From: an uncultured Bacillota bacterium
Lineage (GTDB): Bacteria > Sysuimicrobiota > Sysuimicrobiia > Sysuimicrobiales > Segetimicrobiaceae
Length of the DNA: 64,000 nt
Assembly: GCA_963804645.1 (NCBI GenBank)
Contig: CAWDRG010000017.1
Location: 544,001-608,000, forward strand
Reading direction: 5' to 3'
Below, piece after piece: positions 58,610 to 61,547 of this stretch. The position numbers were made by a program, and so were the translations under genes. Position 1 is the first letter of the stretch, and each line of letters starts with the position of its first letter. Below the pieces are notes generated by a model, which was not told where the DNA came from, searched no databases, and worked only from the letters and a program-made list of their open reading frames with translations.

Positions 58610-59506
58610 CTACCTCATCCGACGGCCGGCGGGGCGCGCGGCGCGGGACGGCGCCGGAACCGACGCCGGGTCGAATCCGACCCACTCGATCCCGGCCACT
58701 CCCTCAAAGCGCTTCGCCATGACTTCGAGGGCTTCCGGGTTGTTGTCCACGAGCACGAATCGTCTGCCGAGTTGGTACGCCGCCTCGCCCGTCGTGCCGC
58801 TGCCCGCGAAAAAGTCGAGCACCGTGTCGCCCGGGCGCGACGACGCGGTGACGATCCGCTTGAGAATCGCGAGCGGCTTCTGCGTGGGATAGCCGGTGCG
58901 CTCGCGCCCGGCCGTCGGCACGATCGTCTGCCACCACACGTCCGTGGGGAGCTTCCCGCGCGCCGCCTTCTCCGGTCCGACCAAGTTCGGGGCCATGTAC
59001 GGGAGACGATCGATGTCGGCGCCGTTGAACACGTAGCGCGCCGGGTTCTTGACGTAAAACAGGATGCTGTCGTGCTTGGCGGGCCACCGCCGAGGGCTGC
59101 GGCCGCCGAAATCATACGCCCAGATGATCTCGTTGAGAAAGCACGCCCGGCCGAACACCTCGTCCAGCAGGACCTTGCAGTAGTGCACTTCTCGGTAGTC
59201 GGTGTGAAAGTAAAACGATCCGTCGGGCGCGAGCACGCGGTGCGCTTCTCGCAGGCGCGGCGCCAGGAATCCGAGATAGTCGTCAAAGTCGTCGGCGAAG
59301 GCGCGGGTGCCGAGCTCGATCGTGGCATACCGCCGTCCCTGGAAGCCGATCCGGTCGCCGCGCTCGGACCGCACGGTCTTGATGCGGGTGCGGCGCTGCG
59401 TCTTCCGGGTGTTGAACGGCGGGTCGATGTAGATCAGCGGCACCGAGTCGGACGGCAGCCGTCGCAGCACCTCAAGGTTGTCGCCCGCGTACACCGCGTG
59501 GGTCAT
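58610..59506 (-). CDS. Orphan N4/N6 DNA methyltransferase, beta class
   Basis: Catalytic DPPF near the N-terminus, then YPTQKP and SAM-binding LDFFAGSGTT near the C-terminus. Confidence 0.92.
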   Translation of the reverse strand: MTHAVYAGDNLEVLRRLPSDSVPLIYIDPPFNTRKTQRRTRIKTVRSERGDRIGFQGRRYATIELGTRAFADDFDDYLGFLAPRLREAHRVLAPDGSFYFHTDYREVHYCKVLLDEVFGRACFLNEIIWAYDFGGRSPRRWPAKHDSILFYVKNPARYVFNGADIDRLPYMAPNLVGPEKAARGKLPTDVWWQTIVPTAGRERTGYPTQKPLAILKRIVTASSRPGDTVLDFFAGSGTTGEAAYQLGRRFVLVDNNPEALEVMAKRFEGVAGIEWVGFDPASVPAPSRAARPAGRRMR

Positions 59507-59561: not shown

Positions 59562-61547
59562 CTAAGTCGCCACATCTGGCGGGGGCGTCGTCACGGGGGA
59601 CGCACCGGACGTCCCTCCGGGACCCGCGCGGCTGGACGCGGCGGGCACAACGCCGCTGAGGTGGGTCAGGGGTCTCGTGCCGTCGTCGGGGCGGTCGTAC
59701 GCGACGCCCTTCAGGTACAGATCGAAGAAATCCCGCATGTCGCGGAGCAATCGCCTGACGTTGGCCCGTGCCGTGACGTAGTACGTTTCCCCCTGGTAGA
59801 CCTTGTACCAGAACGGCTTGTAGTACGCCTCGAGCGCCAACGCAAAGAATCGGGCCTGCGGCGACCCCGGGTACTTGCCTTCGCCGTGCACGACAAAACA
59901 CGGCGTCGCCGCCCGCCGGACATGCAGCAGGGATGAGCACCGCCGGTAGACGTCCTCGTTCTCGTCGAGCCGTCCCAGCTTGTACTCGAGTTGCTTCACG
60001 TGGCGCAGTTCCTCGGTGCCGCTTCGGACCCGGTAGATGAAGTCGCAGTAGCCGGAGCACGGGACCGCCGCCTGAAATGCCCCGGGCGGGGCGAACGCCA
60101 CCGCCGCCATCGTCATGGTCCCGCCGTAACTGTTTCCGGTGATGCCGATGTGCTCGGCGTCGACCTCCGGCAGGCCCCGCAGGTACTCGGCGCCCGCGAT
60201 CGCATCGCGCAGGTCCCCGTGGCCCCAATCCTTCCGGTTGAGATCTTCGAACGCCCGCCCGTATCCCGAGCTGCCCCGGACGTTCGGCAGCAGCACGACG
60301 TACCCCGCGTCGACGAAATACTGTACCTGGGGCTGGAACGTATCCATGAACTGGCTCGTCGGGCCGCCGTGAATCCACAGCAGACCGGGACACGCGCGGC
60401 CCCGGTTCGCCGGCCGGTACAGGTACGCGTGGATCGTCCGCCCGTCAAACGTCGGGTACGCGATCTTGTCGGGCGCCGCGAGACGGCCTTCCACGCCTCC
60501 CCCGAGCATCGAGCGCGTCAGCGGCCGGGCCTGGCCGTCCGCGACGCTCACCACCCACACATCGTTGGGCGTGAGCGGCGTGCCGAACAGATAACTCAGC
60601 CGCGTGCCGTCCGGCGACCAGGCGGGGGCGGTGCACACCCCCATCGTCGGGGCCACGAGCGCACGGGGAGCTCCCCCATCGATGGGCGCGATGCGCAGCT
60701 CCACCGTGCCGTTGTGGTTTTCCGTGTAGGCGACGAACCGACCATCGGGGGACCAGACCGCGTCATTTTGATCCGCCTCGGCCGGCGCCACCCGCCGAGG
60801 ATCCCCGCCGTCGACCGGCGCGGCCCAGATGTTGATCCAGCCGCTTCGCTGCGAGCGGAACAGAAACGTCCGCCCGTCCGGAGATACGCGGGGATGGCCA
60901 AACGCGCTGCCGTAATGATAGTCGAAGAAGTCGGTGTCGCGCAGGACGAGCCTCGGATCGGTCCCATCGGCGTTGATCAGGATCACGTCGTGATCGGTCC
61001 ACGCCTCGTTCAGCCGGACATACAGGATGCGCCCGTCCGGGGTGAACGCCGGATACGTCTCGTAGCGGGCGTCCCCGGTGAGCCGGCGGGCATCGCCGGC
61101 CGGCACCGTCACGCGCACGACGTCAAACGTTCCGCTGGCGTTGGAGGCGACCGCGAGCGCGCGTCCGTCGGGCGCCCAGGCGAACGTTTCGATGCGGCCG
61201 CCGAGCCTGGTCAGCTGCCGCTCGCCGGACCCGTCCGCGGGCCACAGCCAGATCTCGTCCGCACCCGTCTTCGCCGACACGTACGCGATGTATTCGCCGG
61301 TGGGCGACCACTGCGGTCTGGCAAGCGCCAGATGCCCGACGCCGCCCATCCCCACCGTCAGTCGGACCGGCGGGCCTCCGGCCGGAGAGACGCTCCACAA
61401 CTCGGCGGGACCGCCGAGGCCGGATGTGAAGACGACCGCGGTTCCGTCCGGCGCCCACTGCGGCGTCTCGGTCCCACCGACGGCCTGCAGCACCAGCAGG
61501 TGGTCCACCGACACGCCCGTCGGCCCGCCGACGCGTTCACTCCTCAC
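59562..61547 (-). CDS. S9 (acylaminoacyl-peptidase-like) fold protein: beta-propeller + alpha/beta hydrolase with non-canonical triad
   Basis: Repeated WSPDG (PD40) motifs, IHGGP, PNVRGSSGYG, GNSYGG. The Asp and His positions read HGEGKYP and GETYY. Confidence 0.88.
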   Translation of the reverse strand: MRSERVGGPTGVSVDHLLVLQAVGGTETPQWAPDGTAVVFTSGLGGPAELWSVSPAGGPPVRLTVGMGGVGHLALARPQWSPTGEYIAYVSAKTGADEIWLWPADGSGERQLTRLGGRIETFAWAPDGRALAVASNASGTFDVVRVTVPAGDARRLTGDARYETYPAFTPDGRILYVRLNEAWTDHDVILINADGTDPRLVLRDTDFFDYHYGSAFGHPRVSPDGRTFLFRSQRSGWINIWAAPVDGGDPRRVAPAEADQNDAVWSPDGRFVAYTENHNGTVELRIAPIDGGAPRALVAPTMGVCTAPAWSPDGTRLSYLFGTPLTPNDVWVVSVADGQARPLTRSMLGGGVEGRLAAPDKIAYPTFDGRTIHAYLYRPANRGRACPGLLWIHGGPTSQFMDTFQPQVQYFVDAGYVVLLPNVRGSSGYGRAFEDLNRKDWGHGDLRDAIAGAEYLRGLPEVDAEHIGITGNSYGGTMTMAAVAFAPPGAFQAAVPCSGYCDFIYRVRSGTEELRHVKQLEYKLGRLDENEDVYRRCSSLLHVRRAATPCFVVHGEGKYPGSPQARFFALALEAYYKPFWYKVYQGETYYVTARANVRRLLRDMRDFFDLYLKGVAYDRPDDGTRPLTHLSGVVPAASSRAGPGGTSGASPVTTPPPDVAT

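Follow-up and report, generated by a model that had tools for sequence, protein, structure and literature searches.

Serine peptidases of family S9 carry a catalytic triad that is ordered Ser-Asp-His and lies in characteristic motifs, including a GGSYGG-type sequence around the nucleophilic Ser (PMC13181208). For the alpha/beta-hydrolase fold in general, the acid is described after strand 6 or 7 and the His after strand 8 (PMC4613230). The gibberellin receptor GID1 is a non-catalytic protein of this fold (PMC3531792), in which Ser191 and Asp289 are kept and the His is replaced by Val319 (PMC9663428). The S9C peptidases compared here are the Geobacillus S9 carboxypeptidase (8WT1), the puromycin-hydrolysing peptidases (7C72 and 3AZO), Aeropyrum ApAAP (1VE6 and 1VE7), the Deinococcus S9 peptidase (5YZM) and Sporosarcina AAP (5L8S). 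Among inactive S9B homologues, DPP6 and DPP10 preserve the S9 architecture with an incomplete triad from which the Ser has been lost, and Ser-Lys-Tyr hydrolases of the class C beta-lactamase type belong to another fold and require SxxK and YxN motifs.

The window analyzed here is a stretch of 64,000 nucleotides from an uncultured Bacillota bacterium (GCA_963804645.1, contig CAWDRG010000017.1), and the gene of interest occupies positions 59562..61547 on its minus strand, on which all features given below also lie. The gene has a GTG start with a purine-rich stretch on its 5' side and a TAA stop, and encodes an S9-fold protein of 661 residues in which no signal peptide was seen by eye. Residues of about 27-345 (60513..61469) form a beta-propeller of PD40 repeats (Pfam PF07676), with seven blades counted from the strands of an AlphaFold2 model, and residues of about 353-615 (59703..60491) form an alpha/beta-hydrolase domain recognized by Peptidase_S9 (PF00326, E 2e-32) and by structure matches. 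The model, built with 113 sequences, has a mean pLDDT of 91.7 and a pTM of 0.90, and is confident in both of the altered loops discussed below. The S9 fold proposed in the original prediction is borne out by the top structural matches, which all belong to S9: 8WT1 (Z 35.0, rmsd 3.2 A, 580 aligned residues, 26% identity), 7C72 (Z 34.9), 3AZO (Z 33.7) and 1VE7 (Z 33.1). Neither a non-S9 or His-less solved relative nor a solved structure of a member of the present clade occurs among the fold-search matches listed, where the best sequence identity is about 20-26%, and a search of the ESM Atlas with homologue P0058 returned only generic S9 clusters. The C-terminal tail, residues 637-661 (59565..59639), has pLDDT values under 50 and is probably disordered; before it, an RPLTHLSG motif at residues 623-634 (window about 59646-59681) is common to the closest homologues.

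Within this architecture the nucleophile is intact, as had been predicted: Ser473 (60129..60131) stands in a GNSYGG motif, and Tyr474 and the HGG oxyanion-hole motif (residues 393-395, 60363..60371) are kept alongside it. The other two triad positions are altered. The loop after strand 7, HGEGKYP (59868..59888; PCFVVHGEGKYPG over His554-Gly561), is one residue short and lacks the catalytic Asp. In the YQGETYYV sequence after strand 8, Tyr589 occupies the canonical His slot and Tyr590 that of the canonical Gly (59778..59783). Alignments to solved S9 structures set the catalytic-His position of 8WT1 and 5YZM on Tyr589, which upholds the proposed exchange of His for Tyr. The parallel claim that Asp had become Lys survives in the sense that the loop holds no conserved acid, but the pairing of Lys558 with the Asp depends on the alignment: phmmer places it on the Asp of 8WT1, and MAFFT on the Arg of the DxR motif, where 88 of 114 canonical relatives carry Arg. 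The protein thus has the propeller and alpha/beta-hydrolase domains of an S9 enzyme and a Ser in a GGSYGG-type motif, and is set apart from S9 peptidases by the loss of two defining features, the Asp after strand 7 and the His after strand 8. The NCBIfam equivalogs for the AtxE2 lasso isopeptidase and Dpp5 score the query at 149 against a cut-off of 400 bits and at 116 against 900 bits, respectively, and none of six proteins scored passes either.

These changes are shared by a large group of homologues. A search with residues 350-630 yielded 1465 matches, of which the best 120 were taken by E-value without a motif filter; all of these best 120 (58-99% identity) have Ser473, Tyr589 and Tyr590. 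Close homologues that keep Asp and His, the finding that would have spoken against the original prediction, did not occur, and the loss is family-wide. A pool of 264 clade sequences comprises the 121 closest (query included), 16 representatives, 37 genome-locus proteins and 90 sequences from a search in which a divergent member was the query, leaving out truncated or frameshifted representatives and four canonical matches of the latter search; its rows beyond the first 121 were assigned by score and motif reading. Ser473 is present in 264/264, usually as GTSYGG, and His393 in 261/262. The canonical His slot holds His in 0/264 clade members, a count that is partly circular beyond the first 121 because those rows were assigned partly by motif, compared with 112/114 of the nearest canonical S9 proteins, used as a control. 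A His does occur elsewhere in 585-592 in ten members, and in four of these it is residue 588. Position 589 is Tyr in 227, Phe in 24, Gly in nine and Pro in one of 261 sequences, and position 590 is Tyr in 250 and Phe in one of 261. Position 558 varies, both among the 121 closest (Arg 56, Lys 35, Gln 11, and others) and in the pool of 264 (Arg 121, Lys 44, Gln 21, Leu 21, and others; basic in 165). No Asp is conserved at one column of the strand-7 loop: an Asp lies anywhere in columns 556-559 in 25/264 members and a DxR in six, all within a lineage-specific insertion. Gly557 is present in 257/264 and Lys577 in 264/264, and position 518 is Lys in 211/264 and Gln in 41. Asp402 (260/262) corresponds, by its offset from HGG, to the hinge residue Asp376 described in PMC3338720, and is probably structural.

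In a tree that sets 36 domains of the clade against 32 canonical ones, trait columns included, the members form a single clade with 100/99 support, and the loss of the His and Asp is a trait of the whole family. The clade shares with the S9C peptidases the propeller plus alpha/beta-hydrolase layout, the GxSYGG elbow and the HGGP and NxRGSxGYG motifs; it differs from them in having no Asp after strand 7, a Tyr-Tyr pair for His-Gly after strand 8, and new conserved motifs. The latter are SGY (Tyr500, 60048..60050; 260/264), E-x-R-H-x-K, the propeller motif WxDH (Trp183 to His186, 60990..61001; Trp in 248/249, His in 246/249) and FFDY, within the propeller loop D204-x-x-F-F-D209-Y210 (60918..60938; Asp209 and Tyr210 in 250/250). 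Residues conserved specifically in the clade are Tyr500, Glu513, His516, Gly557, Lys577 and Tyr590, together with Trp183, His186, Asp209, Tyr210 and Gln260 of the propeller. Unlike DPP6 and DPP10, the clade never loses the Ser (264/264). The Tyr beside a Ser nucleophile that marks the class C beta-lactamase type would be shared only if Tyr590 were catalytic; in the clade the Ser is followed by YGG, with no SxxK and no invariant Lys near the site. The sub-lineage of the query has Lys523 (59979-59981), against Glu in 248/264 members, and a two-residue insertion at residues 506-507 (60027-60032), ahead of the ELRH motif.

Some divergent sequences depart further from the canonical S9 pattern. P0135, P0271-P0278, P0130, P0354, P0355 and P0133 have lost His516 and the Tyr-Tyr pair, and some have deleted loops, with the Ser, SGY and propeller motifs retained; these are likely pseudoenzymes inside the clade. 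In the outgroup, P0252 and P0193 are separate S9 proteins with damaged triads: in one, Gly replaces the Ser and Arg the His; in the other, the Ser is intact and Arg replaces the His.

Three residues missed by the original prediction, namely His516 and Glu513 after strand 6 and the adjoining Tyr590, are better candidates for catalytic partners of Ser473 than those it named. The reading that we tentatively place first is a stand-alone serine hydrolase that acts on small amides or peptides after their import, in which a relocated His516-Glu513 pair would serve as base and Tyr590 would assist. The catalytic His might accordingly be imagined as having moved from after strand 8 to the helix after strand 6, a tentative proposal, with the tyrosine pair filling the old His site. 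In such an enzyme, Ser473 would attack the carbonyl and HGG would stabilize the oxyanion, while His516, held by Glu513 on the helix after strand 6, would take the proton directly or through a water, and Tyr590 would help on the leaving-group side. Tyr or Phe589 may plug the space vacated by the His-Asp pair, for which the new Gly557 would give room, and Lys or Arg558 could retain the substrate-binding role of the DxR arginine. We infer the activity, the substrate class and the identity of the base. Were the triad rebuilt in this way, imported amides or peptides could conceivably, though we hold this tentatively, be broken down by uncultured soil, peat and marine microbes.

The placement of His516 rests on alignment. 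The motif E513-L-R-H516 (60000..60011), in which His516 is present in 243/264 and Glu513 in 235/262 members, is specific to the clade, and in the AlphaFold2 secondary structure the two residues are spaced i, i+3 at the start of the helix. It aligns without gaps to Asp482-Ala-Ala-Phe485 of ApAAP, and the gap-free alignment of the same genome's paralogue gives Tyr500 = Val471, Glu513 = Asp482 and His516 = Phe485. Phe485 and Val471 of ApAAP are reported to contact ligands docked at the active-site Ser445 (PMC4394528), and Asp482 to pair, through a salt bridge, with Arg526 next to the catalytic Asp (PMC3338720). His516 is therefore predicted at an active-site pocket position. An equivalence of Lys/Arg558 with Arg526 fits this picture, because Asp482, the counterpart of Glu513, pairs with Arg526; position 558 is Arg in 121/264 and Lys in 44/264, with the register uncertain by one residue. 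Against a role as base, the ApAAP equivalent of His516 lines the acyl-side pocket, which is not the base position.

Covariation within the clade bears on the same reading. In a non-redundant set of 110 members under 80% identical, position 590 is Tyr in 96/96 members with His516 and in 6/14 without it; Glu513 is found in 90/94 of those with His516 and is mostly lost in the 14 without. Against the relocated pair, Glu513 is replaced in six non-redundant His516-bearing members. Glu513, Glu587 and Asn596 relax in members lacking His516. This joint conservation and loss suggests that His516, Glu513 and Tyr590 act as one active-site module, although a module lost jointly could equally be a ligand pocket. 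A whole-protein tree of 49 rows with the trait loops excluded (midpoint root, no outgroup) gives six changes at His516, at least five of them forced, and scatters the His516-less rows, so repeated loss is the simpler reading; a basal position of these members, suggested by a first domain tree, is not retained. Other histidines considered as substitutes, His211 (125/250), His72 (96/219), His443 (179/264) and His554 (205/264), are too variable.

The relocated pair is also favored by the constraint on the gene. In NG86 comparisons of ten pairs, from five genes of four genomes and with dS near saturation and GC-biased, dN/dS is 0.14-0.40 in the catalytic domain versus 0.17-0.40 in the propeller, and 0.07 and 0.09 over residues 549-613, which hold the altered loops, in the two closest pairs. 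The catalytic domain is under purifying selection and evolves no faster than the propeller. The Ser473 codon is AGC or AGT in all 42 copies read from DNA, and Gly, one transition away, is never seen. Two RNA libraries contain one 159-base and one 219-base contig on the gene, which as contigs cannot show transcription.

His516 is absent from 21/264 members, in at least five separate changes, and all 21 keep Ser473, so the conservation of the Ser is independent of His516 and is not proof of catalysis; the Ser is needed for something in which His516 is dispensable. In a second reading, somewhat doubtful but weighty and close to the pseudoenzyme option of the original prediction, the protein would be a non-catalytic, GID1-like binder that stores, shuttles or senses a ligand, with a carboxylate or carbonyl gripped by its Ser and HGG motif. 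His516, Arg515, Lys518, Tyr500 and Tyr590 would then form a specific ligand pocket with Trp183, His186, Asp209 and Tyr210 of the propeller. Such a role accords with the absence of two of the three triad residues from all 264 members, with the persistence of the Ser even where His516 and the Tyr-Tyr pair are gone, and with the former Asp and His loops, whose length differs widely between subclades. The rule set out by MEROPS likewise makes the protein a non-peptidase homologue (PMC3625958), and further S9 genes of the same genome look intact in their Ser, Asp and His motifs. GID1 provides the precedent, counting against the relocated base, of a receptor that retains the Ser after replacement of the catalytic His (PMC9663428, PMC3531792). 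The likeness is incomplete: GID1 keeps its Asp, has Val at the His slot, acts with a DELLA partner and lacks a propeller, whereas the clade is without the Asp, has an aromatic residue in place of the His and has gained a conserved His elsewhere, and shows no fixed partner gene. The joint conservation of His516, Glu513 and Tyr590 fits a catalytic module as well as it fits a pocket.

Genomic context also weighs against a binder. No conserved transporter, regulator or signaling partner was found across 30 regions and four further ones, and no partner gene recurs across phyla; SusC/SusD recur only in related Gemmatimonadota. A SusC-like gene (Pfam checked) lies close by in 12 of the 30 regions compared; these 12 are mostly from related Gemmatimonadota and are not independent. 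Neighbors of other members include M20, M24, M28, S15 and S8 peptidases, amidases, amidohydrolases, gamma-glutamyltranspeptidase and family-5 binding proteins, seen in scans of 41 and 59 ORFs in which many other neighbors are unrelated or unnamed. The clade is patchy: of 61 related genomes, five matched at 1e-60 with seven matches, two of them canonical S9 proteins, and clade members occur in 4/61. We infer that a patchy, stand-alone gene with hydrolases and uptake systems around it more typically encodes a catabolic enzyme than a receptor, in keeping with the relocated His516-Glu513 base. In the window itself, the flanking genes for an E1 dehydrogenase subunit and a DNA methylase are uninformative on function. 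The latter, an N6/N4 DNA methyltransferase gene (58610-59506), lies 55 bases downstream on the same strand, with no restriction gene seen beside it, and does not recur next to relatives. Judged by eye, members from the related Gemmatimonadota have signal-peptide-like starts, and the clade has both secreted-looking and cytoplasmic forms.

A third reading, which we consider unlikely, retains an active serine enzyme and assigns the base to Tyr590 (or Tyr500), to the propeller pair His186-Asp204 in a closed form, or to the substrate. Unconventional use of the triad is known in alpha/beta-hydrolases (PMC10548524). His186 (246/249), Asp209 and Tyr210 (250/250) and Tyr500 (260/264) are all better kept than His516, and Tyr590 changes to Phe just once in 261. 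The AlphaFold2 secondary structure sets His186 in the outer b-c hairpin of blade 4, and in S9 topology we take this hairpin to cover the helix after strand 6 and not the Ser. The W183-x-D-H186 motif may supply an interface residue or a second-choice relocated His. No invariant Lys stands near Tyr590 to lower its pKa, Lys518 being Gln in 41 members and the invariant Lys577 probably lying at a distance from the site, in the turn that precedes strand 8, and P0278 lacks both His186 and His516.

The new Ser/Tyr/Lys arrangement of the original prediction, in which Tyr589 stands in for His and Lys558 for Asp, is very improbable. Although phmmer pairs the Asp of 8WT1 with Lys558 and its His with Tyr589, and Tyr589 is found in 121/121 closest homologues, position 558 is Lys in just 44/264 and basic in 165, and Phe at 589 in 24/261 shows the Tyr589 hydroxyl to be dispensable; natural variants already point to both residues as dispensable. 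Sequence error or decay in a single lineage has a practically negligible probability, for although one gene with two lost triad residues might suggest it, the pattern is common to 264 homologues in one well-supported clade, dN/dS is below 0.41 in 10/10 pairs, a second intact copy exists in the same genome, and independent contigs agree: in a peat-metagenome contig, 59616-60482 is covered gap-free with 16 substitutions, and among the differences listed none touches the codons of the three motifs, which rules out an assembly error. The best 120 homologues rule out chance as well.

The clade is a real and conserved variant of the S9 fold, apparently not described before: no prior description was found by title and abstract start in the full-text literature, a search that most subscription journals lie outside, and sources naming its proteins annotate them as ordinary peptidases. 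Its hosts include Chloroflexota, Gemmatimonadota, Armatimonadota, Acidobacteriota and, with one protein, Bathyarchaeia. Those named among the closest homologues include Thermomicrobiales, Roseiflexaceae and Armatimonadota, and the matches listed in genome loci include Gemmatimonadota, SAR202/Dehalococcoidia, Anaerolineae, Acidobacteriota and Gammaproteobacteria. Two plasmid proteins matched at 38-41% and carry the annotation S9 family peptidase. As a large natural family with the Ser, no canonical His in any member and a conserved His elsewhere, the clade offers a direct test of base mobility. Should it be active, rules by which an S9 protein without the His or Asp is taken as dead would be wrong for this clade, which would have a new catalytic layout; if inactive, it would be a bacterial GID1-like binder, and either outcome would correct the annotation of hundreds of proteins.

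Several loci carry more than one clade gene. The present genome has a second intact member, 70% identical (G000:C9:1017249-1019168; L083:10250-12169), flanked on one side by a family-5 solute-binding protein gene and on the other by a class V aminotransferase gene, with an S15 hydrolase and an amidase nearby. Two tandem clade genes occur in 8/29 loci, one of them frameshifted. Loci L004, L007, L008, L010, L014, L016 and L031 have a tandem pair of divergent clade genes, in most cases behind SusC/SusD, possibly representing a heterodimer or two specificities, and at L028:5640-9556 both tandem genes are broken over several frames, through assembly error or decay. A putative esterase of about 600 residues (PF00756, weak) adjoins the clade gene at L017:7878-9689, L020:585-2414 and L025:4038-5939 and lies nearby in two more loci. 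Another S9 gene of the same genome (G000:C9:1337307-1337930) has the elbow GNSKG, with Lys after the Ser, apparently intact Asp and His motifs, and GETH where the clade reads GETY.
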